A DNA stretch of 19,757 nt from Synergistaceae bacterium (lineage in GTDB: Bacteria; Synergistota; Synergistia; Synergistales; Aminobacteriaceae). Position numbers and translations under genes: made by a program. Positions 1,489 through 19,451 of this stretch are shown here, piece by piece; the stretch's first letter is position 1; every line of letters starts with the position of its first letter. The stretch is from the NCBI GenBank assembly GCA_031276855.1, contig JAISMH010000015.1, positions 1 to 19,757 of the forward strand. Reading direction: 5' to 3'. The notes below the pieces were generated by a model. That model saw only the letters and a program-made list of their open reading frames with translations. It was not told the DNA's origin and ran no database searches.

Positions 1489-1619
1489 TGCGGGGTTGGC
1501 GGGATATTTTCCGGGCCGGGCGCTTTAGTTTGGCGCGCGGGTGACCGACAAAGAGGATAGCAGCGGTGAAAGCCGCTCGGGAAACGGCCTCAAGGAATGG
1601 GGTTTGCAATTTTCGCGGA

Positions 1620-1637
1620 GCGATAAAAACTTATCGC
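1620..1637 (+). promoter_or_regulatory. Inverted repeat GCGATAA-N4-TTATCGC abutting the flgE SD (GGGAGGG). The half-site resembles a sigma-28 -10 element (GCCGATAA).
   Basis: The 7-bp arms are exact reverse complements. The repeat ends 3 nt before the SD. Confidence 0.4.
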
Positions 1638-1655
1638 GGGAGGGATTCATATAAA

Positions 1656-3764
1656 ATGTTGAGATCGCTTATGACGGCGGTGACGGGCGTTCGGTCGCAT
1701 CAGACGATGCTGGACGTGACGGGAAACAACATCGCGAACGTCAACACCACGGGGTTCAAAAAAGACGCCACGATCTTTCAGGATCTTCTGTATCAGACGT
1801 CTCAGGGCGCCACGGGGCCGGGAGACGCGAGGGGCGGCGTCAACCCCGCCCAGGTCGGGTTGGGCGTGAAGGTCGGGGCCATCGAGACCATCCACTCGCA
1901 GGGCGGCGCCCAGTACACGGGCAACAAGTCGGACATGATGATCGAAGGGGAGGGCTATTTCGTCTTCCGCAACGGAATCAGCCGAATCTACAGCCGCGCG
2001 GGCAACTTCACGCTGGACGCCGACAAGAAGCTGGTGCACTCCGGGACCGGTTACGTGGTGCAGGGCTACGAGATGGTGCAGAACCCCGCGAAGGCCACGG
2101 AGTACATCAAGGCGGGCGACATCAGCGACATCGTCATCCCGATAGGCAAGGAAATGGAGGCCCGCGCGACAAGCGTCGTGGGGGTCAAGAACAACTTGGA
2201 CGCCACGAAAGACCCCTATCTGCCGATAGGCTACGCGGATATTGAGTATAGCGACGAAACCGGGCCCGCCAAGGTCAAGATCGGCGGTATTGAGTACGAC
2301 GTGAGTTTCAAGACGAATACTGCAGGCACAACCGCCGGCACAGGGTATCTGACTGTCAACTTGGCCACAGGCGGGACGCCAGTATCCATCCAGCTTAATA
2401 TGACGGGGATCAAAGATGGGAAACCTGTTTTGGGAATAGAGGGTGCTATGGGAACTCCACCCGTTGCTACTGTGACTTTGAGCGGTGGAACAACGGCCAC
2501 GGTAGCCTATAACAACGATACCGGTATTTTGAAACTGACAGATTCGACTACTGGCTCACGGACATTAGGAGCGACGCTTTGGGAAATCAACCTGAAGGAG
2601 AACATGAACTACAATGCGTCCAGCATTTCAGGTGTTGTTCCAGCCGCTCTCAACCCAGGAGGTGGGCAGACTTACAATTACAGCTTTATTACGGAGTTTA
2701 GTGAAAATGCTCTCAGCGGGTCTCCGGCGCAGCTTACAATCTGGTACTATGGAAGTTCTCCGGCAGACGCTACCAACAAAGATTTTGGAAAGCTCACAGC
2801 CCAAGTTTCGTTTAAGTCGGACGGTACATTCGATTCGGTGACACCCCTGACAGCGACTGCCGGCACAGGAACGTGGCCTACGTGGCTCACTGTTGACAGC
2901 ACCGATCCCACTAAACCAAACATGCTTCAGGTAGTCGTTTCGGAAAGCAATTCTTCCGTACTGGAGATGAAGGTCGCTAAAGATGCGACCGCTACTTCTT
3001 TCGATACGGTCAACCAGATCACGCAGGGCGGATTCGAGCAGACGAAATTGACGGTCTACGACTGCCAAGGGAACCCCTACACGATGGAAATCACGTTCAA
3101 GAAGCTGACGAAAGACCGCTGGCGGTGGGAGGCCTTCTTCCCGGAGAATCCCGAGCTTTTCAACGTGCCCCCGTCGGGGGAACTGAAGTTCGGCCCTTGC
3201 GGCAAACTCAAGTTTCCGAAGGACGGGGCGGACATCTACGTCCCCTTCTCCCTGCTCGGGACGAAGAACGAGACCATTCACCTGGACTTCAGCAACAAGT
3301 ATTTCAAGGGCGACGATTACGTCTGGGACACCGACGCCCTGGAGGGCCTGACGCAGTACGCCTCGGCCAGCACGGCGAAGGCCTACTATCAGGACGGCTA
3401 CCAGATGGGCGTCCTGAACAACTACACCGTGGGCAACGACGGAACGATCACGGGCATCTACACCAACAGCCAGACCCAGCCCATATACCGCGTGGCCCTG
3501 GCGCAGTTCGCCAACCCGATGGGCCTCGACAAGGTGGGCAGCACCATGTTCCGCGAATCGATCAACTCCGGCATGGCGCAGATCGACGCGGCGTCGGACA
3601 ACGGGTCGGGAACCATCGCCGGCGGCACGCTCGAAATGTCGAACGTGGATCTGACGGAGGAGTTCACGCGCCTCATCATCGCGCAGCGCGGCTTTCAGGC
3701 GAACACCCGGGTCGTGACGACCAGCGACCAGATTCTGGAAGAAGTCGTCAACCTGAAACGGTAA
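1656..3764 (+). CDS. flgE: Flagellar hook protein FlgE, long form (about 702 aa) with a large central insertion domain.
   Basis: N-terminus MLRSLMTAVTGVRSHQTMLDVTGNNIANVNTTGFK and C-terminus GTLEMSNVDLTEEFTRLIIAQRGFQANTRVVTTSDQILEEVVNLKR are the canonical flagellar rod/hook terminal segments. RBS GGGAGGG lies 8 nt upstream of ATG 1656. The track ORF starts at 1566, but the ATG at 1656 with an SD is preferred. Confidence 0.93.
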   Translation: MLRSLMTAVTGVRSHQTMLDVTGNNIANVNTTGFKKDATIFQDLLYQTSQGATGPGDARGGVNPAQVGLGVKVGAIETIHSQGGAQYTGNKSDMMIEGEGYFVFRNGISRIYSRAGNFTLDADKKLVHSGTGYVVQGYEMVQNPAKATEYIKAGDISDIVIPIGKEMEARATSVVGVKNNLDATKDPYLPIGYADIEYSDETGPAKVKIGGIEYDVSFKTNTAGTTAGTGYLTVNLATGGTPVSIQLNMTGIKDGKPVLGIEGAMGTPPVATVTLSGGTTATVAYNNDTGILKLTDSTTGSRTLGATLWEINLKENMNYNASSISGVVPAALNPGGGQTYNYSFITEFSENALSGSPAQLTIWYYGSSPADATNKDFGKLTAQVSFKSDGTFDSVTPLTATAGTGTWPTWLTVDSTDPTKPNMLQVVVSESNSSVLEMKVAKDATATSFDTVNQITQGGFEQTKLTVYDCQGNPYTMEITFKKLTKDRWRWEAFFPENPELFNVPPSGELKFGPCGKLKFPKDGADIYVPFSLLGTKNETIHLDFSNKYFKGDDYVWDTDALEGLTQYASASTAKAYYQDGYQMGVLNNYTVGNDGTITGIYTNSQTQPIYRVALAQFANPMGLDKVGSTMFRESINSGMAQIDAASDNGSGTIAGGTLEMSNVDLTEEFTRLIIAQRGFQANTRVVTTSDQILEEVVNLKR

Positions 3765-3802
3765 CGGACGGCCGGACGGCCGATAAATCGGGTAGGGCGG
3801 TA

Positions 3803-4036
3803 ATGATTGAACTTCACCGTTTGAATGGGGAGCTTTTTTGGCTGAATTCTGATATGATTGAGACCATCGACATCACGCCGGATACCGTGGTGCGTCTGGT
3901 CAACGGGCATCGTTACGTCGTGAGGGAAAACTGTCGAGATGTGAGGAACGCCATCGTGAACTTCCGGCGGGAGGCGGGGTATTCCTGCGTCCCGTTCGGG
4001 ATTCCTTTGGAAGCGGAGGACGGTCAGACGCGTTAG
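3803..4036 (+). CDS. flbD: Flagellar protein FlbD, 77 aa.
   Basis: MIELHRLNGELFWLNSDMIETIDITPDTVVRLVNGHRYVVRE matches the conserved FlbD N-terminus (MIxLTRLNGxxFxLNxxxIExIExTPDTVIxLxNGxKYVVxE). Its position directly after flgE is conserved. Confidence 0.85.
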   Translation: MIELHRLNGELFWLNSDMIETIDITPDTVVRLVNGHRYVVRENCRDVRNAIVNFRREAGYSCVPFGIPLEAEDGQTR

Positions 4037-4046
4037 TCGCTTTGTA

Positions 4047-4066
4047 TTAAATTAAATTTAATTTAA
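4047..4066. repeat. Perfect 20-bp all-A/T palindrome TTAAATTAAATTTAATTTAA in the flbD-motA spacer.
   Basis: The reverse complement equals the sequence. It sits in a window that is otherwise above 60% GC. Confidence 0.95.
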
Positions 4067-4081
4067 GCGAATTCAGCGGTT

Positions 4082-4918
4082 TTGGCGGGCTCGAAAATTT
4101 TGTTCGGCCAGGGGGGGACGCAGGACTTGGATTTAACCACTGTCGTCGGATTTCTTATCTGTTGGATTCTCGTTATCGGCGGAATGGCCGCCGGGGGAAA
4201 CATTGCCGCCTATTACGACTTTCCTTCCATATTGATCACCGTGGGCGGATCGATAGGGGCCGTCGTCATCTCGCACCCGAGCGACATCCTGAAAACGGTG
4301 GGGGGCGCCATCAAGAACGCCTTTTTTTCCTCGGACCCCAACCTTCTCGGCATGGTGCAGACGATCGTGAGCTTCGCCGAAAAAGCCCGCAGAGAAGGGC
4401 TTCTCGCGCTCGAGGGCGATGTCGCGGAGCTGGACGACGAGTTTTTGCGCAAATCCATCCAGCTGGTGGTGGACGGCACGGATCCCGAACTGGTGAAGGC
4501 CATTCTGGACACGGAAATAGGCATTCTGGAAGACCGGCATTCCGCGAACAAATCCGTTTTCGACGCGACCGCCGAGCTCGCCCCTGCCTACGGGATGATC
4601 GGAACCCTGATCGGCCTCATCGCCATGCTGGGGAACCTTCAGGACGTCAGCGCCCTGGGGCCCGGCATGGCCGTCGCCCTGATCACGACGATGTACGGCT
4701 CCATGATGGCCAACATGCTCTGCATCCCGGTGGCCAAGAAGCTGGCCGCCCGCTCCTCCAAGGAAATCCTCTCCATGGAGCTGATGGTGGAGGGCATTCT
4801 GGCGATCCAGGCCGGCGAAAACCCCCGCATCGTCGAGGAAAAGCTGAAGGTGTTCCTGCCTCCGAAACTGAGGCACAACCTGGAGGACGCCCAGAAAGCG
4901 GAAAGAGGAGAAAAATAG
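4082..4918 (+). CDS. motA: Flagellar motor stator protein MotA (proton channel, 4 TM).
   Basis: TM segments VVGFLICWILVIGGMAAGG and the C-terminal plug/TM3-4 region YGMIGTLIGLIAMLGNL…ALITTMYGSMMANMLCIPVAKKL are typical of MotA/PomA/ExbB. The track start TTG 4082 has a weak SD. An alternative in-frame TTG at 4127 (LDLTTVV) is preceded by a G-run at 4111-4117, so the true start is uncertain. Confidence 0.88.
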   Translation: MAGSKILFGQGGTQDLDLTTVVGFLICWILVIGGMAAGGNIAAYYDFPSILITVGGSIGAVVISHPSDILKTVGGAIKNAFFSSDPNLLGMVQTIVSFAEKARREGLLALEGDVAELDDEFLRKSIQLVVDGTDPELVKAILDTEIGILEDRHSANKSVFDATAELAPAYGMIGTLIGLIAMLGNLQDVSALGPGMAVALITTMYGSMMANMLCIPVAKKLAARSSKEILSMELMVEGILAIQAGENPRIVEEKLKVFLPPKLRHNLEDAQKAERGEK

Positions 4919-4921
4919 AAC

Positions 4922-5647
4922 ATGGCGCGCAAGAAAAAAGCTCCTCCGCCGGGGCCCAGCGCCCCTCTTTACATGGCGACCTACGGGGACATGGTGACGC
5001 TCGTCCTGTGCTTCTTCGTCCTGCTGTTCGCGATGTCCTCGGTCGACGCCCAGAAGTTCCAGAAGGCCATTCTCTCCCTGCGCGGCTCTCTCGGCATCCT
5101 GAGGGGCGGTTCAACCGTGGAGGAGACCGTGGATCCGAACACCAGCGGCGAAGACGGAAGGGCCGCGGGCGCGGCGCCCCGCCATGTGATGAACACGCAG
5201 CACGTGGCCTACACGATCAACAGCTACCTGCGCAGCGAAGGGCTGGACAAAGCCATACAGGTGACCATCAACCAGAGGGGGGTCGCCGTCTCCATATCGG
5301 ATCAGTTCCTTTTCGACAGCGGCAGCGCCGTGCTGAAAACCGAAGGCAAGCGGGTCTTGTACAAAATAGCGACGCTGGTACGCGAGGAAGTCCCGGCCGT
5401 TTCCGTCGAGGGACACACGGACGCCGTTCCCCTGCGGGGGGGCATTTACCGGGACAACTGGGGACTCTCCTCGGCGAGGGCCGCCGTGGTGGCCTCCTAT
5501 CTGGCGGAGGAGGGAGGCGTGACGCCCCAGAAGCTCCAGGCGGTGGGATACTCGTCCTACCAACCGACGGTGCCCAACGACACGCCGGAGCATCGGGCTC
5601 TGAACCGCCGGGTGGACCTCGTTTTTCTGTCGCAGTATCCGAAATGA
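4922..5647 (+). CDS. motB: Flagellar motor protein MotB (OmpA-like peptidoglycan-binding C-terminal domain).
   Basis: N-terminal TM helix (MATYGDMVTLVLCFFVLLFAMS) with the conserved Asp in DMVTLL. OmpA-like C-terminal motif EGHTDAVP…NWGLSSARAAVVASYL…NRRVDLVF. GAGGAG SD 11 nt upstream. Confidence 0.9.
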   Translation: MARKKKAPPPGPSAPLYMATYGDMVTLVLCFFVLLFAMSSVDAQKFQKAILSLRGSLGILRGGSTVEETVDPNTSGEDGRAAGAAPRHVMNTQHVAYTINSYLRSEGLDKAIQVTINQRGVAVSISDQFLFDSGSAVLKTEGKRVLYKIATLVREEVPAVSVEGHTDAVPLRGGIYRDNWGLSSARAAVVASYLAEEGGVTPQKLQAVGYSSYQPTVPNDTPEHRALNRRVDLVFLSQYPK

Positions 5648-5678
5648 CGATTCGTGGGAAAGGGCGGACCGGAATACT

Positions 5679-6125
5679 ATGAAAAGAATTTTGATTTTTG
5701 CCGTCGTGGGTTTGGTCATGTTCGCCGTCGGCTTCGGAGGAGGGCTCTTCATGGGCCGTGCGATGGCGCCCGACAGCTCCTCGTCGGGCCGGACGAAGAG
5801 CGTGGAGGCGCCGGGGCCGCTCGTCGCGGTGGGGGAGTTTACCAGCAATCTGGCCGGGTCGGGCAAGCACGTCATCAGCTTCACCGTTTCGCTGGAGACC
5901 CTGAACCCGAAGGCCGCGGACATCGTGGGCAACGTCTGGCTTCCGAGGATAAAAAACGAGATCCTGCTGATCGTGAAGGACAAAGTTTACGAAGATTTGA
6001 CGAGCGCCGAGGGAACGCTGCAGTTTGCCGAGGAGATCAAGCGGGCCGTCAACTCGCAGCTCCCGGAAGTCAACGGCGAGGCCCCCGTGGTGCGCGTCCT
6101 CTTCGAGGCGTTTGTGCTGCAGTGA
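5679..6125 (+). CDS. fliL: Flagellar basal-body-associated protein FliL.
   Basis: Single N-terminal TM helix followed by …LVAVGEFTSNL…HVISFTVSLETLNPKAADIV…IKNEILLIV…, which matches the FliL family pattern (…xLxxFxVNL…RYLxxxIxLE…). Its position between motB and fliM is conserved. Confidence 0.8.
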   Translation: MKRILIFAVVGLVMFAVGFGGGLFMGRAMAPDSSSSGRTKSVEAPGPLVAVGEFTSNLAGSGKHVISFTVSLETLNPKAADIVGNVWLPRIKNEILLIVKDKVYEDLTSAEGTLQFAEEIKRAVNSQLPEVNGEAPVVRVLFEAFVLQ

Positions 6126-6146
6126 GTTTACGCCGACAATAAAAAA

Positions 6147-6178
6147 ATTGATAATAAAAGATTGATAATAAAAAGATT
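6147..6178. repeat. AT-rich tandem direct repeat ATTGATAATAAAAG, two copies then a partial one, in the fliL-fliM spacer. The minus strand reads TATCAATCTTTTA (IHF-like WATCAANNNNTTR).
   Basis: Read directly from 6147-6160 and 6161-6175. Confidence 0.85.
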
Positions 6179-6225
6179 CAGCGTGCGGCGGCGCCGCGCG
6201 GCAATTTTAAGGCAGGTGAGTGTTC

Positions 6226-7230
6226 TTGGCCCCCGATGTGTTGTCCCAGAGCGAAATAGATTCTTTGTTGAGCGCGCTGACGAGCGGGTCGATGGATCTC
6301 GACTCGATGACCCAGCAAAGCGAGTACGAGGTCAAGCTCTACGACTTCAAGCGCCCCGACAAATTCAGCAAGGACCAGCTGAGAGCCATTCAAATGATCC
6401 ACGAGGCCTTCGGGCGCCAGCTCTCGACCGTGATGTCCTCTCTCATCCGGTCCATGGTCGCGGCCGAGGTCGCCTCCGTGGACCAGCTGGCCTACGAGGA
6501 GTTCGTGAACTCCCTGGTTCAGCCCACGGTCATCGGAACGCTGGAAATGCATCCCTTCAACGGCAACGCCCTGATCGAGATCAATCCGAACCTGGTTTTC
6601 GCGATGATAGACCGGCTTCTGGGAGGCAAGGGGGAGTTTACCGGCAAGGCGCGGGAGCTGACGGACATCGAAAAGACGGTCATCGAGCGCGTACTGATGC
6701 GGATGCTCGAACTTCTGGAAGACAGCTGGAGTACGGTCGTGGACGTGAGGTTCCGCTTCGAGAGCATGGAGAGCAACCCCTTCTTCGTGCAGGTCTGTCC
6801 CCCGCGGGATATGGTGCTGCTGGTCATCATGAAGCTGCAGGTCGGAGAGGTGGAGGGGATGATCAGCCTCTGCATTCCCTACTTCCTGATGGAACCTATC
6901 GTGGACAAGCTCTCCTCTCAGCAGTGGTTCGTCTCGACGGGCCGCAAGGGCGACGACGGCGTCCGCGAAAATCTGCTCCATTCGCTCGACCGGGTGAAGG
7001 TTCCCATGTCCCTCGAACTGGGGCACACGGTTCTCAGCCTGGCGGACGTCTACGACCTCGAAGAGGGCGACGTGATCAAATTGGACGAGGAAATCGGCAG
7101 CGAGGTCGAGGTGCGGGTCGGAAACTATGTCCGCTTCAAGGCCAGGCCGGGAACCTTGGACGGCCGTCTGGCGGCCGAGGTGACGCGGGTCGTCAGCGGC
7201 ACGGACGAGCCTGAAGGAGGGGGAAACTGA
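6226..7230 (+). CDS. fliM: Flagellar motor switch protein FliM.
   Basis: N-terminal CheY-P-binding peptide (M)APDVLSQSEIDSLLSAL. Central CheC-like FliM domain. C-terminal SpoA/FliN-like domain (VPMSLELGHTVLSLADVYDLEEGDVIKLD). Start TTG 6226 lies 5 nt after AGGTGAG (6214-6220). The track lists GTG 6220, which sits inside that SD. Confidence 0.9.
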   Translation: MAPDVLSQSEIDSLLSALTSGSMDLDSMTQQSEYEVKLYDFKRPDKFSKDQLRAIQMIHEAFGRQLSTVMSSLIRSMVAAEVASVDQLAYEEFVNSLVQPTVIGTLEMHPFNGNALIEINPNLVFAMIDRLLGGKGEFTGKARELTDIEKTVIERVLMRMLELLEDSWSTVVDVRFRFESMESNPFFVQVCPPRDMVLLVIMKLQVGEVEGMISLCIPYFLMEPIVDKLSSQQWFVSTGRKGDDGVRENLLHSLDRVKVPMSLELGHTVLSLADVYDLEEGDVIKLDEEIGSEVEVRVGNYVRFKARPGTLDGRLAAEVTRVVSGTDEPEGGGN

Positions 7231-8342
7231 TGGATAATCTGTTGAGCCAGGATGAAATAAACTCTCTTCTCGGCGGAGGCGACGCCCCTTCAGGCTCCGC
7301 GGGGCTTTCTATGGAAGACACGCAGATTCTGAACGAGGTCGCGAGCATTTTCTCGAACGCGGAGAACAACGTGTTCAGCATGCTGGCGGGCAAGGAGGTC
7401 AACTCCAAAGGCGGGGAGACCGAGGTTCTTTCTCAGGCGGAGTTCAAGGCGAAACTTGGCGCCGAGACGCCTTTCGTTTTCAGGGCGACCTTCGACGGCT
7501 TCGACGACGTGCCTTTGATTTTTGCCGTCGGGCGCCGCGGCGCGCTGGCGCTGGCCGATTTGATGATGGGCGGAGAGGGGAAGGACGTCCCCGAGGAGGC
7601 CAGCGAGCTTTACCTGAACGCGGCTCAGGAGGGATTGAGCCAGGTCGTGGGCTCCGCCTTCACCAGCCTGAGCGGCCTGATGGGCGGCCGCCGCCTGATG
7701 CCCGAAAACACGAAGTCCGCTTTGGAAGAGGAAGACGACTGGGCGGTATTTCCCGCCTTGGACGCCGAGGCCAGGGTGTGGGCCAGCTTCTCCGAGGTGG
7801 AAATAGAGGGGCTGGAGCCCTTCGCGATATGGGCCGCCATTCCTTTGGATTCCGTGAAAACCATGGCGGAGCTGATTCGTCAAAATATGGGAGGAGGGGA
7901 AAAGCAGCCGGAGTCCCCTTCTTTATCTTCTTCTCCGTCTCCCCAGGCGCCCCGCGCGGCTCAGGCGGCGGGCGCTTCGCCCGCTTCCGCTCCTTCGACG
8001 AGAGGCGGCCAGCGTCCCGGGCCCGTGACCGACGTGCGCCCCGCGGAGTTCACTCCCCTCTCGGCCAAGGGCCCGGCGGGGAGCGGCAGCAAGATCGACC
8101 TGATCGCGGATATTCCGGTGCGTGTCACCGTGGAACTGGGGAAGACGAGAAAAAATATCTCCGAGATCCTGGGCATGACGACGGGTTCCGTCATCGAACT
8201 GGACAAAATGGCGGGGGAGCCCGTGGACGTGCTCGTCAACGGAAAGCTGATCGCCAAGGGCGAGGTCGTCGTGATCGACGAAAACTTCGGAGTGCGCGTC
8301 ACCGAGGTCTTGGGCGCGGCTCCGAAGGCCTACGCGGTGTGA
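7230..8342 (+). CDS. fliY: Flagellar motor switch protein FliY/FliN, long form. FliM-like N-terminal peptide, middle domain, and C-terminal FliN/SpoA domain.
   Basis: N-terminus MDNLLSQDEINSLLGG (LSQxEIxxLL CheY-binding motif). C-terminus IPVRVTVELGKTRKNISEILGMTTGSVIELDKMAGEPVDVLVNGKLIAKGEVVVIDENFGVRVTEV is a canonical FliN. ATG overlaps the fliM stop (TGATG). Confidence 0.85.
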   Translation: MDNLLSQDEINSLLGGGDAPSGSAGLSMEDTQILNEVASIFSNAENNVFSMLAGKEVNSKGGETEVLSQAEFKAKLGAETPFVFRATFDGFDDVPLIFAVGRRGALALADLMMGGEGKDVPEEASELYLNAAQEGLSQVVGSAFTSLSGLMGGRRLMPENTKSALEEEDDWAVFPALDAEARVWASFSEVEIEGLEPFAIWAAIPLDSVKTMAELIRQNMGGGEKQPESPSLSSSPSPQAPRAAQAAGASPASAPSTRGGQRPGPVTDVRPAEFTPLSAKGPAGSGSKIDLIADIPVRVTVELGKTRKNISEILGMTTGSVIELDKMAGEPVDVLVNGKLIAKGEVVVIDENFGVRVTEVLGAAPKAYAV

Positions 8343-8449
8343 GTTTGCCGCTTCGATTCAAAGGAGCTGCGATTCGAAAAGGGCTGCCGCGCTTCTTTGC
8401 ATACGGTAATTGTCCGCAGAAAAAGTCTTCGTCCGCCGGGAGATGCGTA

Positions 8450-8458
8450 TGATATAAT
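8450..8458 (+). promoter_or_regulatory. Extended -10 promoter candidate (TGATATAAT) inside the 315-nt fliY-cheY spacer. The -35 is poor.
   Basis: TGnTATAAT consensus match at 8450-8458, about 200 nt upstream of cheY. Confidence 0.3.
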
Positions 8459-8657
8459 CACTTCGGCGTTGCTTTGGGGTTCCGCGCCGAAACGTGAACG
8501 TGAAGAGTTTTTTCGGCGGCGCCGGCAAGAAGAACGGGAGCAGTACGAAAAACACGGAAGCGGCCGGAAACGCAGGGAAAATTTCCGGCAGAAGCCGAAA
8601 AAGGCTGAAAGTTTTGTTTGAATTTCAGAGAATCTTAGGTAAGCGAGGGGTTGCAGC

Positions 8658-9020
8658 ATGGGCAAAAAGGTTCTGATAGTGGATGACGCTGCCTTTATGC
8701 GTATGATGTTGAAGGATATTCTCCAGAAACACAGTTTCGAGATTGTGGGAGAAGCAGAAAACGGAAAGCTCGGGGTTGCGGCCTATCAGAAATACAAGCC
8801 CGACATCGTGACGATGGATATAACGATGCCGGAAATGAACGGCATCGACGCCGTAAAGGCCATCAAGACGCTGGATCCTGCCGCGAAGATCGTGATGGTC
8901 TCCGCGATGGGACAGCAGCCGATGGTCATCGAGGCCATTCAGGCGGGCGCCAACGACTTCATCGTCAAGCCCTTCCAACCGGAGCGCGTGATCGAGGCCA
9001 TTTCCAAAGTCTTGGGTTAA
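8658..9020 (+). CDS. cheY: Chemotaxis response regulator CheY (single REC domain, 120 aa).
   Basis: KVLIVDDAAFMRMML…DIVTMDITMPEMNGIDAVKAIK…KIVMVSAMGQQ…AGANDFIVKPF. All REC catalytic residues are present (DD, D-phosphoacceptor in TMDI, T/S, K). SD GCGAGGGG 7 nt upstream. Confidence 0.92.
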   Translation: MGKKVLIVDDAAFMRMMLKDILQKHSFEIVGEAENGKLGVAAYQKYKPDIVTMDITMPEMNGIDAVKAIKTLDPAAKIVMVSAMGQQPMVIEAIQAGANDFIVKPFQPERVIEAISKVLG

Positions 9021-9151
9021 AAACGGGAATTTTGGGTTAAAGCCGAAAGTTTTGGGTTGAAACCGAGGGTTCCGGGTAAAATCCAATAGTTCCGGATCGA
9101 GCCCAAAGTTTCGGGCTGAATTCGAGATTCCGGGTTGGACTGCCGAAGGGG
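9012..9151. repeat. Degenerate tandem array with a 20-bp period and 7 units (consensus about YYGGGTTRAARCCGARRGTT). It starts inside the last codons of cheY and fills the cheY-fliO spacer.
   Basis: Units at 9012, 9032, 9052, 9072, 9092, 9112 and 9132. The first three begin TTGGGTTAA, TTGGGTTAA and TTGGGTTGA, and identity decays towards fliO. Confidence 0.8.
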
Positions 9152-9197
9152 TGGCTGAGCTACGGGGGAAGTCGGTTTTACCGCTTATATTACGCGT

Positions 9198-9461
9198 ATG
9201 GCTCTGGCTCTTGCGGTGATGGCTGTCATTGCGGTCGCCGCTGTTCGTTTTGTCAAAAGCGGAGCCCGCGGAGGGCGGAGCGGGGCGCGTGTCGAAGTTA
9301 TGGCATCCTTGCCTTTGGGTAAGGATGTTTTTTTCGTTCTGCGGTGCGGTCCCGAGGTTTTTGCCCTGACATCCGGGCACGCGGGGACTCATCTGATAGG
9401 CAGGTGGAAATATGAAGAATGGCTTCGATGGGAAGAAAAGGAGAAGGCTTGCGAAAGCTGA
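9198..9461 (+). CDS. fliO: Flagellar biosynthesis protein FliO (FliZ of Bacillus), short form.
   Basis: One TM helix (LALAVMAVIAVAAV) followed by RVEVMASLPLGKDVFFVLRCGPEVFALTSGHAGTHLIG. This matches the FliO core (…ERVPLGPRESLVLVEVGGRVLVLGVT…). Its position between cheY and fliP is conserved. An in-frame stop at 9156 bounds the start, and the SD is weak. Confidence 0.55.
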   Translation: MALALAVMAVIAVAAVRFVKSGARGGRSGARVEVMASLPLGKDVFFVLRCGPEVFALTSGHAGTHLIGRWKYEEWLRWEEKEKACES

Positions 9462-10245
9462 GTCATTTTTCTTCTTCTGCTTTTTGACCGGTCTCGTCCT
9501 CGCGGTCTTTTTTGCCGCTTCGCCCGCCGAAGCCGCTTTTGTCGAGGAAGCGCCGAGAATACCCATTCCGCTTCTGCAGTTGGGCGTCGTCCCGGCGGAC
9601 TCCCCGCAGGATGTCGCCGTTTCCTTGCAGATACTGGCTCTTTTGACGGTGCTGACCCTGGCCCCGGCCATTTTGCTGATGCTGACGAGCTTCACGCGGA
9701 TCGTCGTGGTGCTGGGGTTCATTCAGCGCGCGATCGGTCTCCAGCAGTCGCCGCCCCAGCAGACCATCGTCAGCCTCGCCCTCTTCCTCGCCCTCTTCAC
9801 GATGTATCCGACGTGGAACCGCATCTACGAGAACGCCCTCGCCCCCTATCTGGCGAAGGAGATCGACTCCCCGCGGGCGTGGACGGAGACGATCACGCCC
9901 CTGAGGGAGTTCATGTTCCGTTACACCCGTCAGGAGGAGCTGTCCCTGATGGTCTCCATGGCGAACCTCGAACGCCCGGAGAACCGGGAGGAGGTTCCGA
10001 CGCGGGTTCTGATCCCCGCTTTCATGCTGAGCGAGCTCAAGACCGCTTTTCAGATGGGCGTGGTGATCTACATTCCCTTCATCATCGTGGACATGATCGT
10101 GTCGAGCGTCCTTTTGGCGATGGGCATGATGATGCTGCCCCCCATGATGATTTCTCTGCCGTTCAAGATCCTGCTCTTCGTGATGGCCGACGGCTGGAAC
10201 CTCGTCGTCGTGAGCCTTCTCAAGAGCTTCACGAACGTGCCGTAA
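9412..10245 (+). CDS. fliP: Flagellar type III export apparatus protein FliP.
   Basis: Signal peptide, then the conserved LTLAPAILLMLTSFTRIVVVLGFIQRAIGLQQSPP and C-terminal YIPFIIVDMIVSSVLLAMGMMMLPP motifs. AGGTGGA SD. Overlaps the 3' end of fliO by 50 nt. Confidence 0.92.
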   Translation: MKNGFDGKKRRRLAKAESFFFFCFLTGLVLAVFFAASPAEAAFVEEAPRIPIPLLQLGVVPADSPQDVAVSLQILALLTVLTLAPAILLMLTSFTRIVVVLGFIQRAIGLQQSPPQQTIVSLALFLALFTMYPTWNRIYENALAPYLAKEIDSPRAWTETITPLREFMFRYTRQEELSLMVSMANLERPENREEVPTRVLIPAFMLSELKTAFQMGVVIYIPFIIVDMIVSSVLLAMGMMMLPPMMISLPFKILLFVMADGWNLVVVSLLKSFTNVP

Positions 10246-10257
10246 GGGGGCGGGCTC

Positions 10258-10533
10258 ATGGACATCGTTCCGATCAACATGTTCGACATCTTAAACGAGG
10301 CGGTCTGGACGATGCTCCTCGTCACCATGCCCATTCTTCTGGTGGCGATGGGCGTGGGGCTCATTATCGGCATCGTGCAGACGGCGACGTCCATTCAGGA
10401 GCAGACGCTGATCTTCATCCCGAAGATTTTGGCCGTGTTTTTGTTCATCATCCTCGTCGGGCCCTGGATGGCCGACAAGATTCTGGGCATCACTCGGGAA
10501 ATTCTGGGGCACCTCGAGAGGTTCATTCAATGA
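10258..10533 (+). CDS. fliQ: Flagellar export apparatus protein FliQ.
   Basis: 91 aa with two TM segments. LLVTMPILLVAMGVGLIIGIVQTATSIQEQTLIFIPKILAVFL is the FliQ signature. Confidence 0.9.
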   Translation: MDIVPINMFDILNEAVWTMLLVTMPILLVAMGVGLIIGIVQTATSIQEQTLIFIPKILAVFLFIILVGPWMADKILGITREILGHLERFIQ

Positions 10534-10570
10534 ATCCAGTAAATCCAATGAATCCAGTAAATCCGATGAG
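10528..10570. repeat. 18-bp tandem repeat CAATGAATCCAGTAAATC, 2.4 copies, at the fliQ stop and in the fliQ-fliR spacer.
   Basis: Copies at 10528-10545 and 10546-10563 are perfect. A partial third copy is CGATGAG. Confidence 0.9.
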
Positions 10571-10590
10571 CCCGGTTTGGAGGCCGAACC

Positions 10591-11388
10591 TTGCAGGGGC
10601 TTGAGATTCCCGCGCAGCTTCTGGTGGTGTACTGTCTGGTGCATCTTCGGTTCGTGGGCATGATGTTCACGTTTCCCCTGTTTTTCACGACGGCGAGCCC
10701 CGTTCCCTTCCGGTTTCTTTGCGCCGTTTTCCTGACCGTGACCGCGGCGGGCACTCTGGCGGAGAGCGGGGAGGATTTCGCCGTCTCCATGGTTCTCCTC
10801 GAAAGCTGGGTGCCGCTTCTGCTGATGGCCCTGCGCGAGCTCTTCATCGGCGCGGCCCTCGGTCTCCTCGCGGCCCTGCCTCTGGTGGCGCTCCAGGTCT
10901 CGGGGGAGCAGGTGAGCATGGCGATGGGGCTCTCCATGGCCAGCGTGATGGACCCCCTGATGGACCGCCAGACCTCCATCATCGGGCAGCTTCAGTTTCT
11001 GATCGGGCTGTGGTTCTATTTCCGCTGGAACGGCCACCTTCTGCTGATTCAGGCGGTCGTGGAAAGCCTGCGCCTTCTCCCGCCGGGGAGGCTCTCCTGG
11101 ATTCCCGCGGGGGACCTGTCGTTCGGGGATTGGCTCTCGGCGGTTTTCGACCTGGCGGCGAAGATCGTCGTTCCTTTTTACTGCGCCCTCCTGCTGGCGG
11201 ATGTCGGGCTGGGGTTTCTGGCGCGGACCGTTCCCCAGATGAACATTTTCATTTTGGGCCTGCCCGTGAAAATCGCGCTGGGGTTCTTCGTCCTGGCGAT
11301 CGTTCTGCCCCTGGCCGTGGAGATCGTCTACGCGCATCTGGAGCGGTGGGTCGAGTTCGCCCTGCAAAGCTCGATGGTCTGGCGCTGA
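10591..11388 (+). CDS. fliR: Flagellar export apparatus protein FliR.
   Basis: Polytopic membrane protein. ALRELFIGAALGLLAALPLVALQVSGEQVSMAMGLSMASVMDP is typical of FliR. TTG start with GGAGG SD at 10579-10583 (7-nt spacing). Confidence 0.88.
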   Translation: MQGLEIPAQLLVVYCLVHLRFVGMMFTFPLFFTTASPVPFRFLCAVFLTVTAAGTLAESGEDFAVSMVLLESWVPLLLMALRELFIGAALGLLAALPLVALQVSGEQVSMAMGLSMASVMDPLMDRQTSIIGQLQFLIGLWFYFRWNGHLLLIQAVVESLRLLPPGRLSWIPAGDLSFGDWLSAVFDLAAKIVVPFYCALLLADVGLGFLARTVPQMNIFILGLPVKIALGFFVLAIVLPLAVEIVYAHLERWVEFALQSSMVWR

Positions 11389-11436
11389 ACGGGCCCGGCC
11401 CCCGTCAAGCGAATCCGGCAATATCGGCGTCGGCGG

Positions 11437-11500
11437 TATAAATTCGGTGGATATAAATTCGATGGCTATAAATTCGATGAATATAAATCCCGTGACTGAA
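11437..11500. repeat. 15-bp tandem repeat TATAAATTCGATGRN, 4 copies plus degenerate extras, in the fliR-flhB spacer.
   Basis: Units at 11437, 11452, 11467 and 11482. Each carries a TATAAAT box and an in-frame ATG or GTG. Confidence 0.9.
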
Positions 11501-11530
11501 TCGAGCGATATGAATTCTCGGCGGCCGTCG

Positions 11531-12631
11531 ATGAAAACAATCCCCCGTTTCGTTTTCGACATTCAATTCTTCGCCCAGGAGCGCACGGAGGCGGCGACGC
11601 CCAAGAAGCGCCAGAAGGTGCGCTCCGAGGGGAAGGTCTGCAAAAGCCGCGACCTGACCGCCGCCGTCGAAATTCTGACGGGCCTCGTGGGGCTCGTGAT
11701 GTTCGGGCCCTCGATCTTCGGCGGGCTCATCGACTATTTCCGCGAGATGATCGGGGTTCTGGGGGAGGAATCGCTTCTGCGGGCTGGCTGGTTTTACCGC
11801 CTGGAGTTCACGGCGCTCCGGGCCTACTTCGGCGCCTGGCTCCTGCCGGGGCTCCTCATCGCGGCCTTCACCACGGCCGTGACGGTCTATCAAATCGGCT
11901 GGGTCATCAGCTTCGAGCCTTTCAAATTCGACTTGAACCGCCTGAACCCCGTCTCCGGCATGAAAAAGATCATCTCCCTGCGCTCTCTCGTGGAGCTGCT
12001 GAAGGGGCTTCTGAAGGCCTCCCTCTTCGTCCTCGTCATCTATATCGCCATGCGGGACAAACTGCCCGCCGCCGTGTACGCGATGCAGCTTTCGATGGCG
12101 GCAGGGGCCCTGCTCTTCTGGAACCTGCTGTGGGACCTCTCGATGCGGCTGGCCGCGATGCTTTTGGTCATGGCGCTCGTGGACTACCTGTACCAAAAGT
12201 GGGATTATGAAAAGTCCATACGGATGAGCAAGCAGGAGGTCAAGGAAGAGTTCAAGCAGATGGAGGGCGACCCTCAGATCAAAAGCAAGATCCGCCAGAA
12301 ACAGCGGGAGCTCGCGAAGAAGAGAATGATGTCCTCCGTGCCCAAGGCGGACGTGGTCATCACGAACCCCACCACCCTGGCGATCGCTTTGGTGTACGAC
12401 CGCAAAATCATGGCCGCGCCTCAAATCACGGCGAAGGGCAAGGGCTTCGTCGCCCGGAAGATCCGCGAGCTGGCCGCGGCGCACGGGGTCCCCGTCATCG
12501 AAAACAAACCCCTAGCCTGGGCGCTTTACGAGTCCGCCGATGTGGGGGACGAGGTGCCGGAGAACCTCTACCGCGGCGTCGCCGAAATTCTGGCGATGGT
12601 CTACAAACTCGCCGGAAAACAGCCGTCTTAG
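11531..12631 (+). CDS. flhB: Flagellar export switch protein FlhB.
   Basis: N-terminus MKTIPRFVFDIQFFAQERTEAATPKKRQKVRSEGKVCKSRDL parallels Bacillus FlhB (MKLRVDLQFFAGEKTEKATPKKR…). The C-terminal autocleavage region contains NPTTLAIALVY, which carries the NPTH-like motif. The track ORF extends in-frame upstream to GTG 11447 through the 15-bp repeats. ATG 11531 is preferred by homology. Confidence 0.9.
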   Translation: MKTIPRFVFDIQFFAQERTEAATPKKRQKVRSEGKVCKSRDLTAAVEILTGLVGLVMFGPSIFGGLIDYFREMIGVLGEESLLRAGWFYRLEFTALRAYFGAWLLPGLLIAAFTTAVTVYQIGWVISFEPFKFDLNRLNPVSGMKKIISLRSLVELLKGLLKASLFVLVIYIAMRDKLPAAVYAMQLSMAAGALLFWNLLWDLSMRLAAMLLVMALVDYLYQKWDYEKSIRMSKQEVKEEFKQMEGDPQIKSKIRQKQRELAKKRMMSSVPKADVVITNPTTLAIALVYDRKIMAAPQITAKGKGFVARKIRELAAAHGVPVIENKPLAWALYESADVGDEVPENLYRGVAEILAMVYKLAGKQPS

Positions 12632-12752: not shown

Positions 12753-14015
12753 ATGCGGAGAGCGGGAAGAAAAACGGATTCATGGGAGTTCCTGAAATTA
12801 AGGAAGCTCTTGAATTTCCTGAGGTTCATTAAATTTGCGGCGTGTTTTCTCTTCCTGTTTTCCCATCCCGCTCTCCCCGCTTTTTGCGCCGAGGCCGACA
12901 CGTCCCTTTGGACGTGGGACGTGCTGGTCATTCCCCCCGACGAGGGCTGGCAGAGCGAGAAAGGTCTTTCCGTTCAAAATGCGCTCCAATGGCACGCGGC
13001 CGAAATCTCGGAGAGCGGAGCCGGCATTCGGGGTCATGACCTCCGATTCGTCTTTCTCCCGCCCCTGACGGAGGACTCCGCGCGGAGTTTCGCCCTTCCC
13101 AACGACCCCCGCGCCGTCGCCGTCATGAGCTTCGCGTCGAACCCCGTGGACAGGGCGCTGGCGGATAGAGAACTGGCCGGCCGCTCCGCGGGAAGCGGGC
13201 TTCCCCTCTTCCTGGCCGGCGGAGAAAACGTTTCCCTCTTCGAGGGGAGCCGTCCTGTCCCGCGGCTTTTCGCCCTCGACCTTTTTCGGGACTACCGCTG
13301 TCAGGCTTTCGCGGATTACGCGTCGAAAATCGCGGCAAAAGACGCCCGGGTGGGCGTCATGGGCGCGCGGTTCACGCTCAACGAGGAACGCGAGGCCAAA
13401 ATTTGCTTCGACCTCTTCTCGGAAGCGGGTTTCATGCCCATGCCCTACTGGGTGGACGCCTCCGTGAGGGACTCCTTCTCCATGGTCGAACAGGAGATCG
13501 TCGACTACAGCAACGGCATTCTCATCAGCTACATCGGGAGCATGGGCACGAAGGAAATCTGGCGCGGCATCATGGGACACCAGTCCCCTTACCGGATCTG
13601 GTACGGCGGGGTTCCCGACAAATCCTTCCTTTCTTATAGAGGCATGATCTTCGCCGATCAGAACATGTATCTGGACGCGCTGGGGGGCTTTGAGCGGCTG
13701 AAGCGCGACCTGTGGTCGTCGCGCGCCCTGTCCGCCCCGGACAAGGTCGCGGCGGGGCGGGCCAACGCCCTCGCGTTCTGGCTGATTCAGGCCCTGAAGG
13801 CCCTTCCGGGCGATTTGGACAGCATCGACAGGAACGCGCTGCTTTCCCTTCTGGCCGAAGCGCGGGACATTCCCTTCGGCTCCCAGACGCTGAATATCGA
13901 CCGGGACACCCACCGCCCCGGAACGCGGCGGGTCTTCATCATGGAAATGCGCAACAGGAGCTTTTTTGTCCTGGACACCCTCGGCGTGCGGGGACTGAAA
14001 CACCGCGGCGATTGA
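12753..14015 (+). CDS. Secreted periplasmic-binding-protein-like protein (type I PBP fold, LivJ-like), Sec signal peptide. No adjacent ABC permease or ATPase.
   Basis: N-terminal hydrophobic signal sequence (FLRFIKFAACFLFLFSHPALPAFCAEA). Alternating beta-alpha pattern: VLVIPPDEGWQ…, VGVMGARFTLNEE…, ILISYIGSMG…. GGGGAGAGGG SD 6 nt upstream. The family assignment is by pattern only. Confidence 0.55.
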   Translation: MRRAGRKTDSWEFLKLRKLLNFLRFIKFAACFLFLFSHPALPAFCAEADTSLWTWDVLVIPPDEGWQSEKGLSVQNALQWHAAEISESGAGIRGHDLRFVFLPPLTEDSARSFALPNDPRAVAVMSFASNPVDRALADRELAGRSAGSGLPLFLAGGENVSLFEGSRPVPRLFALDLFRDYRCQAFADYASKIAAKDARVGVMGARFTLNEEREAKICFDLFSEAGFMPMPYWVDASVRDSFSMVEQEIVDYSNGILISYIGSMGTKEIWRGIMGHQSPYRIWYGGVPDKSFLSYRGMIFADQNMYLDALGGFERLKRDLWSSRALSAPDKVAAGRANALAFWLIQALKALPGDLDSIDRNALLSLLAEARDIPFGSQTLNIDRDTHRPGTRRVFIMEMRNRSFFVLDTLGVRGLKHRGD

Positions 14016-14937: not shown

Positions 14938-14979
14938 AACGGGGCGCGTTCCACGCCGCCCCGTTAATTTGAAATTTTG
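14938..14979 (+). terminator. Candidate intrinsic terminator or attenuator between the 254-aa gene and the NTPase gene.
   Basis: 9-bp GC-rich stem AACGGGGCG/CGCCCCGTT (14938-14946 pairs with 14957-14965) with a 10-nt loop, followed by AATTTGAAATTTTG. The T-tract is interrupted. Confidence 0.35.
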
Positions 14980-15006
14980 AACCTGAGTGTTTTTCTGGAG
15001 ATGAAA

Positions 15007-16995: not shown

Positions 16996-17018
16996 TTTAT
17001 AATTTATTATTTTATAAT

Positions 17019-17804
17019 CTACGGTTTGCGGAGCGCGTTTTCGACGAAGGGCTTCAGGAGGTCGATGGGGATGGGGAAGAAGGTGGTGGAGTTCCGCTCC
17101 CCCGCGATTTCGCGTATGGTCTGCAGGTAGCGCAGCTGCAGCGTCACGGGCGAGATCTCCATCTGCTGCGCGGCCTCGGACAGCTTGGCCGCGGCCTGCA
17201 GTTCGCCCTCGGCGGCGATGATCTTGGCGCGGCGCTCGCGCTCGGCCTCCGCCTGACGCGCCATGGCGCGCTTCATGCCCTCGGGGAGCTCCAGTTCTTT
17301 CACCTCGACGGCGCTGACCTTGATTCCCCACGGGTCGGTGCGTTCGTCGATGATCTTCTGCAGTTCGTGGTTGATTTTTTCGCGGGAGGACAGAACCTCG
17401 TCCAGCTCGACGGAGCCGACGACGGAGCGCAGGGTCGTCTGGGCCAGCTGGCTCGTGGCCTGAACGTAGTTCTCGACCTCCACGACGGAGTGCGACGGGT
17501 CCAGCACCCGGAAGTACACGACGGCGTTGACCTTGATGGGCACGTTGTCCTTCGTGATGACCTCCTGGACGGGGACGTCCATCGTCAAAATGCGGAGGTC
17601 GACGGTGACCACGCGGTCGATGACGGGAATGACGAACACGATGCCCGGCCCGCGGCTCCCGGCCAGGCGCCCCAGGCGGAAGATGACGACCCGCCTGTAC
17701 TCCGGTACGATTTTGACGGCGGAAGAAAACAGCAGCACCGCGATGAGCAAAACCCCAAACCAACTGCCGATGTTCGACAGTATCCCAAAGACGTCGACGA
17801 CCAT
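17019..17804 (-). CDS. SPFH/band-7 protein, stomatin-like (261 aa) with an N-terminal TM anchor.
   Basis: Minus-strand translation …[72 protein letters not shown]…[35 protein letters not shown] is canonical prokaryotic stomatin. ATG at 17802-17804 (complement) with a GGAGAG SD. The track merges it into a 638-aa ORF because of an open GC-rich frame upstream. Confidence 0.88.
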
Positions 17805-17816
17805 ATCCGAATCTCT

Positions 17817-17854
17817 CCTCTCATAATGACGGGCGCCTCTCATAATGACGGGGG
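17817..17854. repeat. 19-bp tandem duplication CCTCTCATAATGACGGGSG x2, immediately upstream (minus-strand sense) of the SPFH start codon. Each minus-strand copy contains CATTATGAGAGG.
   Basis: Copies at 17817-17835 and 17836-17854 with one mismatch. Confidence 0.9.
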
Positions 17855-17917
17855 CTTCCCGTACCCATGCGATTATACCCCATTCCCGCACCCTGTTCCC
17901 GACACCGCGCCCGCCGG

Positions 17918-19084: not shown

Positions 19085-19407
19085 TGCCGGTCCCCCCTGC
19101 CTCTCAGGCCCTCGAGATTGTGAATATGGACGTGCGCGCCTTTCGGGATGTACTCCGACGCGGCGCCGATCACCGAACCGTATTTCAGGACGTTCTCCCC
19201 CCTGCGAAAATCGCGCAGCGCGATCTTGTGCCCCGCGGGAACGGCCGTGACGGCCGTCAGCTCCAGCGGAGGCCCGTTTTCTCTCCGCGCCGCGATCCGC
19301 TCCCCCGCCGCCACATCGCGAATCACGACGGCAACGTCGTCCTTCGCCGCGACGCAATGCGCGTCCGCCTTCTCCATTTTTTTCATTCGCTCCATTTGCT
19401 CCATCAC
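19081..19407 (-). CDS. SAF-domain protein, the small subunit of the split UxaA-family dehydratase.
   Basis: …[21 protein letters not shown]…[45 protein letters not shown] matches the SAF/UxaA N-terminal domain. Several in-frame ATGs (M1, M2, M5, M8, M11) make the start uncertain. Confidence 0.75.
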
Positions 19408-19442
19408 CTTTGCGTTGTGATAGCCGTGCGTTGTCTGCGTTT

Positions 19443-19451
19443 ATTATAGCA
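19443..19451 (-). promoter_or_regulatory. Extended -10 promoter candidate (minus strand TGCTATAAT) upstream of the SAF/UxaA operon.
   Basis: Plus strand ATTATAGCA, which is TGCTATAAT on the minus strand, lies about 36 nt upstream of the first ATG at 19407. Confidence 0.3.

Follow-up and report, generated by a model that had tools for sequence, protein, structure and literature searches.

Mycobacterial interspersed repetitive units (MIRUs) form one dispersed family with units of ~40-100 bp at tens of loci, a unit length that reportedly goes back to their original description in 1997. They have been described as intercistronic variable-number tandem repeats (VNTRs) of mycobacteria (Supply et al., 1997; summarised in PMC12548453), and the layout of their open reading frames (ORFs) is there thought to preserve translational coupling (PMC12548453). 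In the current study, we characterized tandem repeats in comparable positions within the flagellar operon of a Fretibacterium-like member of the Synergistaceae. The operon lies on a metagenome contig of 19,757 nt with a G+C content of ~60% (JAISMH010000015.1, assembly GCA_031276855.1), which was analysed in its entirety and is called the window below; its plus strand carries, as confirmed with Pfam, flgE-flbD-motA-motB-fliL-fliM-fliY-cheY-fliO-fliP-fliQ-fliR-flhB. As with MIRUs, all elements of the window lie between co-directional genes of an operon, and at fliQ/fliR the likeness extends to a repeat that sits in a small ORF starting on the upstream stop codon (ATGA) and ending at the downstream start. 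This ORF layout was found at fliQ/fliR in 8/8 members of the clade formed by the window and its siblings, and not at the window's flbD/motA, fliL/fliM, cheY/fliO and fliR/flhB junctions. Unlike MIRUs, however, the window's units measure 9-20 bp, a separate unit copied from the end of the adjacent gene is found at each junction, and there is no dispersal. The elements are intergenic VNTRs of a known class, set apart from the MIRU family by unit size and dispersal. An earlier note, made from the letters of this contig, had reported a repeat or AT-rich element at nearly every flagellar junction and had proposed either a shared regulatory logic or a lineage-specific slipped-strand duplication at translation-initiation regions; the observation is confirmed, and the interpretation was half right. 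We consider it probable that the junction elements are young, lineage-private local tandem duplications, tolerated in the stretch that separates a stop codon from the following ribosome-binding site, and that they do not make up a coordinated regulatory system.

All elements listed in the earlier note were recovered, and a repeat is present at every flagellar junction of at least 38 nt; the repeat-free junctions are five short or overlapping ones (motA/motB, motB/fliL, fliM/fliY, fliO/fliP and fliP/fliQ). Chance is excluded as the origin of the window's tandem repeats: Tandem Repeats Finder (TRF) returned 10 arrays with a score of at least 48, where 200 dinucleotide shuffles gave an expectation of 0.175, a ~60-fold excess, and five with a score of at least 70 against none in the 200 shuffles. 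Within the flagellar block, 5/6 arrays fall in 965 nt of spacers vs. 10.1 kb of coding sequence. The 20-bp palindrome of the flbD/motA spacer is perfect and is the longest of its kind in the window, the runner-up measuring 14 bp. At fliL/fliM the repeat proved real, with exactly two occurrences of ATTGATAATAAAA and a unit present 2.8-3 times, and the match to integration host factor (IHF) that had been read into it is at chance level. The cheY/fliO array, announced as seven 20-bp copies, is likewise real with six copies above background: those beginning at 9006, 9026, 9046, 9066, 9086, 9105 and 9123 match the consensus at 18, 16, 19, 13, 11, 15 and 10 of 20 positions, which amounts to three strong copies (9006-9066 by TRF), three moderate ones and a seventh that is marginal against background. 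The 18-bp repeat at fliQ/fliR was found at 2.3 copies (2.4 had been claimed) and the 15-bp repeat at fliR/flhB at 3.5-4 (four claimed). Periods divisible by three account for ~7/15 junction arrays by our own tally, a preference that is not significant.

Relatives were represented by 165 related loci and nine close siblings (L081-L085 and L162-L165), the latter from the same JGI sample series (samples 3300042596, 3300042612, 3300042616 and 3300042648) and retrieved via FliR and FliL homologues; at the protein level these siblings are 69-98% identical to the window. Among species-level genomes, Synergistales bacterium PG1894_187 (locus L001; 65-93% protein identity) comes closest, followed by Fretibacterium, rumen and other Synergistaceae. 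A metagenome scan with MotB returned only relatives at no more than 82% identity, and an exact-protein look-up of the window's FliQ, CheY and FliR found no other assembly of the same strain on record. The window's array density, 0.51/kb vs. a median of 0.048, ranks second among 123 loci of at least 5 kb (~10 times the median), with L001 ranking fourth. In 78 other related loci, arrays occur at 0.51/kb at junctions vs. 0.08/kb in coding sequence.

Comparison of the same junctions in related genomes, a check that the earlier note had suggested, showed the window's repeats to be private to its lineage. None of the five listed elements is conserved in the nine close relatives, even at a dS of ~0.35-0.8; these relatives have nothing, unrelated tandem repeats or GC-rich palindromes at these junctions, and the repeat units tested do not occur beyond their own junction in the window or in 2.1 Mb of related loci, where an 11-mer sub-motif of the palindrome is the sole recurrence. 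The fliQ/fliR spacer, 57 nt in the window, measures 21, 24, 48, 90, 108, 119 and 128 nt in siblings, with mutually unrelated sequences: L084 has just the ancestral 21 nt, ACCCGGTTCGGAGGCCAGATC, the counterpart of the last 21 nt of the window's spacer, L082 has GC-rich hairpins, and L085 and L163 have a different 24-bp array of four copies. The latter is common to the two contigs (GAATTYAATAAAAGGCCTRAAG; L085 171-261, L163 14676-14794). At fliR/flhB, the window's 142 nt compare with 50-78 nt and other mini-repeats in siblings and with 13 nt in L001; at cheY/fliO, its 177 nt compare with 51-83 nt in siblings, and the array is absent from L081, L082, L083, L163 and L164. The flbD/motA spacer (90 nt in the window) reaches 97-208 nt in three siblings, which have other hairpins or a GTTTT repeat, and measures 21-54 nt in most remaining relatives; the palindrome is missing from all relatives' spacers, which retain just the last ~35 nt, AATTTTnnTCGGCCAGGGGGGAC, with the Shine-Dalgarno (SD) sequence of motA. 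The 100 nt of fliL/fliM correspond to 22-199 nt of unrelated sequence in relatives, with the SD AAGGCAGGTGA alone in common, and where the window has a GC hairpin the relatives have other, unrelated hairpins. At fliY/cheY, L163 has a different 14-bp repeat of 3.5 copies that takes in the fliY stop codon. In more distant Synergistales, fliQ/fliR and fliR/flhB overlap or nearly abut, which bears out the premise that flagellar junctions are normally compact for these two junctions outside the clade.

Between the window and L163, in which the whole operon is present, dS is 0.35-0.77 and dN/dS 0.02-0.29, indicating that the flanking genes are functional and under purifying selection; at such dS, neutral DNA is expected to be still about two-thirds identical. 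The window's spacers can be aligned with those of the siblings only over their last 25-50 nt, the SD-bearing part. With dS so modest and the flanking genes so constrained, the loss of spacer similarity points to turnover by insertion and deletion rather than to saturation by substitution.

The source of the units can in several cases be recognized next to them. The 3′ end of cheY with its TAA stop (AAAGTCTTGGGTTAA) makes up copy 1 of the 20-bp array, and L163 keeps, by our own reading of the sequences, a single-copy relative of copy 6, GCCCGGAGTTTCGGG. The fliQ/fliR units start with CAATGA, the last fliQ codon plus the stop, and the last unit is the ancestral ATGAGCCCG that is still present in L084. 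Since the flhB start region belongs to the same repeat family, the 15-bp units appear to be copies of the flhB initiation site, each holding an in-frame GTG or ATG (11447, 11462, 11477 and 11492), and that start region is the probable progenitor copy. Tandem duplications that straddle boundaries are found in two other loci, one of 128 bp x1.9 over the SD and 5′ end of fliM (L003, 6771-7018) and one of 98 bp x1.9 over the 3′ end of fliP (L020, 10632-10815), which suggests that the same process is seen there at an earlier stage and on a coarser scale.

We propose that replication slippage or template switching would duplicate sequence locally, seeded at each gene boundary, and that near-neutral insertions would persist where they are tolerated, in the interval from the stop codon to the next ribosome-binding site. 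The clade (the window and its nine sibling contigs) would then have unusually expandable flagellar spacers that each lineage fills with its own product, AT-rich tandem repeats in the window and, in the siblings, tandem repeats of other kinds or GC-rich palindromic elements, with selection limited to the SD-proximal 25-50 nt, an extended -10 element before cheY and the frame of a bridging ORF at fliQ/fliR. The suggestion of lineage-specific slipped-strand duplication at initiation regions is supported to this extent and can be sharpened to copies of gene boundaries, in keeping with the differing repeats of siblings and the repeat-rich contig. The propensity extends beyond flagellar genes, since a non-flagellar ORF (14977-16995) has four strong in-frame arrays with periods of 15, 15, 18 and 15, which specify repeats in the peptide, a non-flagellar junction has an ATTTATA x3.3 repeat, and array density is high contig-wide. 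These observations fit duplication as a general process on which purifying selection acts as a filter, its rate or tolerance being raised in this lineage. In units of 9-20 bp, 2-7 imperfect copies and graded decay, the elements resemble ordinary slippage VNTRs, as they do in their enrichment in non-coding or fast-evolving sequence, in the differing content of close relatives and in the periods within ORF 14977-16995, which are multiples of three. They differ from these in an unusual density, which at five arrays per 965 nt of spacers is ~10 times the junction average of related loci, and in being systematically seeded at stop and start codons. The finding is mostly an ordinary one, namely that intercistronic DNA turns over fast by local duplication even in an essential, strongly constrained operon.

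Other explanations account for part of these observations. For a reading of the repeats as functional cis-regulatory DNA, either internal promoters or arrays of sites for IHF, a CodY-like or another factor, which would set differential transcription along the operon, one could point to the AT-richness of the units (0-40% GC in a 60% GC contig), to their TATAAA or GATAAT strings, to a sigma-70-like match TTTACG-17-GATAAT at 6127-6155 and to the operator-like look of the perfect 20-bp palindrome. A CodY-like regulator that binds AT-rich palindromes is known in Synergistetes, and its motifs were the source of those tested here (PMC9318921). However, the sigma-70 scan of the window gave four sites vs. 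4.1 expected, a single weak match (9/12) touching a repeat, and no repeat comes within one mismatch of the clade's promoter type TGnTATAAT (TGNTATAAT); nor are promoter-like repeats conserved in position, being absent from the relatives. The IHF consensus WATCAANNNNTTR has one match in the window (6155-6167, minus strand) vs. 0.22 expected, which is not significant as 41/200 shuffles had at least one. The CodY box AATTTTCWGAAAATT has no match in the window at up to three mismatches, and neither has the AT-arm palindrome AAAATT-N8-24-AATTTT. With no motif common to the five elements and none of them conserved in the nine close relatives, the shared regulatory logic that had been offered is not upheld, and we regard regulatory DNA as a quite improbable explanation; AT-rich repeats are no proof of regulation without comparative data. 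A search of the whole window against Rfam (E <= 1) yielded a single chance match (flavi_FSE, 3977-4029) and no known RNA family. An iteron array, which would have direct repeats of 17-22 bp beside a rep gene, DnaA boxes or an unwinding element, was also considered for the 20-bp copies and rejected, as these are flanked by cheY and fliO in a neighbourhood made up of flagellar genes. Even less credible is an origin from a dispersed family, mobile or repetitive extragenic palindromic (REP)-like, that targets intergenic junctions and of which the repeats would be copies or remnants. The siblings do invite the comparison with the REP elements and bacterial interspersed mosaic elements (BIMEs) of enterobacteria, which also occupy intercistronic operon spacers, in that L082, L162 and L164 have GC-rich hairpins there and GC-rich palindromes occur in L162 and L164; moreover, a 23-mer, GCGGGGTTTGGGGCGGAGCCCCA, is common to fliQ/fliR of L082 (2294-2316) and flbD/motA of L002 (4871-4893), and a 16-mer, AATAAAAGGCCTGAAG, to fliQ/fliR of L085 and fliL/fliM of L113. 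The window's own elements, in contrast, are AT-rich direct repeats that are confined to their junctions within the window and 2.1 Mb of related loci and are accounted for by adjacent gene-end sequence, and a test of its units as REP elements or miniature inverted-repeat transposable elements (MITEs) revealed no stable hairpin (z from -2.0 to +1.2) and no further copies. Assembly artefacts, finally, are scarcely conceivable. The contig does come from a short-read metagenome assembly, and no second assembly with the same proteins is on record; but the arrays, at 40-140 bp, are assumed to be below read length, their copies are imperfect with a graded divergence that mis-assembly would not produce, the frames and SDs around them are intact, and comparable junction repeats occur in sibling contigs from other samples.

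The possibility that the expansions are adaptive translational tuners deserves more attention, although we still think it unlikely. A longer spacer would uncouple neighbouring genes, an AU-rich, unstructured insert could act as an S1-type enhancer, and copy number would set the ratios FliQ:FliR, FliR:FlhB and CheY:FliO. This agrees with the steep drop in coupling efficiency beyond ~20-38 nt (PMC10666635), with the ancestral ATGA overlap of fliQ and fliR, with the apparent want of an obvious SD before flhB in the clade (our own reading of the upstream sequences) and with the independent expansion of the same junctions in siblings. When the RNA of every spacer was folded and compared with shuffles (z from -2.0 to +1.2), fliQ/fliR (z = +0.45) and fliR/flhB (z = +1.2) had no extra stability, which would also suit such a role, and the cheY/fliO array alone was weakly structured (z = -2.0). 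On the other hand, the inserts that siblings have at these junctions are rich in GC (66-72%) and in hairpins, so AU-richness is not common to them, and the SDs of fliR, fliM, motA and fliO are kept, so initiation need not rely on the insert. Several observations nevertheless weigh against regarding the elements as tolerated duplications and nothing else. Non-conservation does not exclude a lineage-specific function, and the presence of a repeat in every spacer of at least 38 nt, together with the siblings' independent expansion of the same junctions, could mean selection for longer spacers, that is, for decoupling or the tuning of stoichiometry, beyond mutation pressure alone. The fliQ/fliR spacer is demonstrably constrained, with its bridging ORF kept in all eight members; the flhB frame is open across the whole 15-bp repeat, which may be translated as an N-terminal extension; the cheY/fliO array folds somewhat better than shuffles; and the genome-wide repeat load is judged from this single 19.8-kb contig. 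Under the duplication reading, the nine sibling contigs amount to a natural insertion experiment on what selection protects at junctions: the ribosome-binding sites, one promoter, one fliQ-fliR bridging frame and one intragenic fliO hairpin. Three by-products of the comparison, the bridging ORF, the cheY promoter and the fliO hairpin, appear most worth pursuing.

The bridging ORF is bound up with the ancestral arrangement of fliQ and fliR. In distant relatives the ATG or GTG of fliR overlaps the fliQ TGA, and in the window clade this overlapping start codon (ATG or GTG) survives as the start of the bridging ORF, since FliQ ends in Gln-stop (CAA/CAG TGA). An ORF from the fliQ stop spans the whole spacer in each of the eight clade members, whatever its length or sequence: six spacers (21, 24, 48, 57, 90 and 108 nt) are multiples of three, and the ORF ends 14 nt into fliR at the TGA of codons 4-5, and in the other two (119 and 128 nt) the frame is that of fliR, with the ORF stopping 3 nt before the ATG. 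A length congruent to 1 modulo 3 does not occur among the eight spacers, and all are free of internal stops. When spacers are shuffled and their lengths changed at random by +/-1, the probability that all succeed is ~4e-7, or ~1e-5 for a conservative set of six, if the insertions are assumed to be independent. At other junctions, an ORF of the bridging type is found in 5/41 instances. The window's 9/18-bp repeat sits within the bridging ORF with its frame preserved. A programmed frameshift joining the mini-ORF to fliR was ruled out, as the FliR N-terminus xQGLEIPAQ is kept in all relatives and its xQGLE aligns with their canonical start.

The retained fliQ TGA/fliR ATG overlap of distant Synergistales resembles the ATGA arrangement of termination-reinitiation coupling (PMC6728339, PMC10666635), whereas 21-128 nt now separate the two genes in the clade. 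Termination-reinitiation is steeply reduced, and reported to fail, beyond ~20-38 nt (PMC10666635), so a relay ORF would be needed at these distances, and MIRU ORFs are thought to relay ribosomes (PMC12548453); taken together, a relay function of the bridging ORF is plausible. A bolder reading, which we put forward tentatively and rate as rather doubtful, is that the spacer is an obligatorily translated relay. Insertions would have split the ancestral ATGA overlap while the old start on the fliQ stop was retained, and an insert, whether a tandem repeat, a palindromic element or random sequence of 21-128 nt, would be tolerated only where a stop-free ORF still brought ribosomes to the fliR start. 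The repeats would be evolvable length modules in a coupling mechanism that is indifferent to sequence and determines FliQ:FliR output. With the cheY promoter and the fliO hairpin added, the operon would have a hidden internal architecture of expression that does not depend on the repeat sequence. If confirmed, the bridging ORF would be a natural, non-mycobacterial relay ORF that keeps coupling across a long, sequence-free spacer.

Long flagellar operons have internal promoters, as exemplified by the fla/che operon of Bacillus subtilis. A conserved TGnTATAAT before cheY suggests a second transcription entry point of this type in the window, with the difference that the candidate lies in the fliY/cheY spacer and not in any of the five elements of the earlier note. 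Of the 26 distinct listed loci whose CheY is at least 88% identical, 25 have a perfect match in this spacer, at a distance of 54-266 nt from the ATG. Only L100 departs from this, its 52-nt spacer opening with a TATAAT. No such motif is present in a clade whose spacer measures 47 nt. The position of the window's element is conserved in relatives, as that of the listed elements is not, and the site is likely to be an internal promoter for cheY, as judged from sequence conservation. The window as a whole has two perfect matches, the other being TGCTATAAT on the minus strand near the start of a dehydratase gene (19443-19451). With the exception of the last 30 nt, the rest of the 150-470-nt spacer is unalignable, hypervariable and repeat-rich, with lineage-specific repeats in the cheY leader that are purine-rich in L082, ~18 nt long in L081 and composed of four copies of GGCAAAAA in L164.

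Another candidate for internal regulation lies inside fliO, again where the earlier note had listed none. The window has 20 terminator-like sites, without enrichment, and the 12-bp stem of the fliO hairpin is the longest among them. The hairpin has the GC-containing stem and U-tract of an intrinsic terminator, and its structure is conserved with compensatory change. Counterparts are present in 31 distinct Synergistales loci, where 93% of cells are paired vs. 35-54% in slid controls, a conservation that is partly protein-driven since both arms are coding. Changes on both sides affect 4/12 pairs, with pair 13-29 being UA in 17 loci, CG in 8 and UG in 6, and one compensation couples a synonymous Leu change (TTG to CTG) with a change of Lys AAG to Arg AGG. 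As the cheY promoter and the fliO hairpin bracket cheY, we hypothesize a boosted, separate cheY transcript and attenuated read-through into fliPQR-flhB, which would explain how a high-copy signalling protein could be expressed mid-operon among low-copy export-gate genes.

The starts of fliO and flhB also call for comment. The annotated fliO ATG (9198) has no SD, and the aligned codon is ATA in L083, GTA in L001 and GTT in L002. An ACGG is invariant across six aligned loci, its in-frame ACG standing 10 nt after a conserved SD-like AAGGRG, with an in-frame TGA just upstream in the window, and fliO may therefore start at this non-canonical ACG. The flhB frame has no stop between the interior of fliR and the end of the spacer; in-frame starts occur at the four repeat positions given above and at 11510, and the repeat may thus encode an extension at the N-terminus of FlhB (INSM/INPV). 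The start MKTIPRFVFD is kept in L083 and L084. Openness of the frame was rejected as evidence of coding, as two of the unit's three frames are stop-free by composition, which is not significant, and the L083 spacer has an in-frame stop. FlhB of L085 has a clearly different extension that contains PKRPKR.

Table 1. Genes and sequence features of the flagellar block, in positions of the 19,757-nt window.
Feature	Position	Strand	Remark
flgE	1566-3764	+	Pfam
8-bp x2.2 repeat	3765-3782		flgE/flbD; absent from the earlier note
flbD	3803-4036	+	Pfam
Perfect 20-bp AT-only palindrome TTAAATTAAATTTAATTTAA, (TTAAA)2(TTTAA)2	4047-4066	.	flbD/motA spacer (4037-4126)
motA	4127-4918	+	Pfam
fliL	5679-6125	+	Pfam
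AT-rich 14/15-bp tandem repeat GATAATAAAAAGATT, x2.8-3	6135-6178	+	fliL/fliM spacer; TRF and repeat search
8-bp GC hairpin	6182-6200	+	Between AT-rich repeat and fliM SD; minimum free energy and centroid fold
fliM	6220/6226-7230	+	Pfam
fliY	7230-8342	+	Pfam
16-bp x2.3 tandem repeat	8350-8387	+	Directly 3′ of fliY stop; TRF; absent from the earlier note
Perfect extended -10 TGATATAAT	8450-8458	+	fliY/cheY spacer; candidate internal cheY promoter
cheY leader end and SD GAGAATCTTAGGTAAGCGAGGGGTTGCAGC	8628-8657	+	Near-identical in L081, L082, L163, L164, L001 and L002
cheY	8658-9020	+	Pfam
20-bp direct-repeat array, 6 clear copies and 1 marginal	9006-9142	+	cheY/fliO spacer
SD-like GAAGGGG (9145-9151) and in-frame ACG (9162-9164)	9145-9164	+	Upstream of annotated fliO ATG 9198
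fliO	(ATG 9198)-9461	+	Pfam
Terminator-like hairpin, 12-bp stem, 4-nt loop, then T7	9302-9336	+	Inside fliO coding sequence
fliP	9412-10245	+	Pfam
fliQ	10258-10533	+	Pfam
18-bp x2.3 (= 9-bp x3.6) tandem repeat, RTRAATCCR units	10528-10569	+	fliQ/fliR; begins on fliQ stop; TRF
Mini-ORF, 24 codons, MNPVNPMNPVNPMSPVWRPNLAGA	10530-10604	+	ATG overlaps fliQ TGA; stop 14 nt into fliR
fliR SD GGAGG (10579-10583) and TTG start (10591)	10579-10593	+	Direct sequence reading
fliR	10591-11388	+	Pfam
15-bp x3.5-4 tandem repeat TATAAATTCGATGGA	11437-11496	+	fliR/flhB; repeat families D1 and D2
flhB start region TCGATGAAAACAATCCCC	11528-11545	+	Member of repeat family D2, 78% identity
flhB	11531-12631	+	Pfam

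Downstream of flhB, which ends at 12631, flhA does not follow, and the next ORFs (12753-14015 and 14977-16995) have no homologues in related loci; in L163 a minus-strand gene (16768-17217) comes after flhB. The flagellar operon therefore appears to end at flhB in the window clade. The second of these ORFs, which holds the four in-frame repeats, has a weak match to AAA_16. On the minus strand, 17019-19474 carries an SPFH/Band-7 gene and a D-galactarate/altronate dehydratase gene, and between ORF 14977-16995 and the convergent SPFH gene lies the window's best sigma-70-like site (TTGTGA-17-TATAAT, 10/12; 16990-17018), which coincides with the ATTTATA x3.3 repeat. Among the siblings, GC-rich palindromes of the form CCAGGGGC-NNN-GCCCCTGG fill spacers in L162 and L164 and are similar to the 23-mer shared by L082 and L002, and a dispersed REP/MITE-like family of Synergistaceae may lie behind both. 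In L162, a 301-nt 'spacer' before fliL holds GC-rich palindromes, and motB is apparently disrupted (1298-2327, called as 183 aa + 54 aa). The 16-nt core of the 24-bp array of L085 and L163 occurs once in distant L113, at ~11256.

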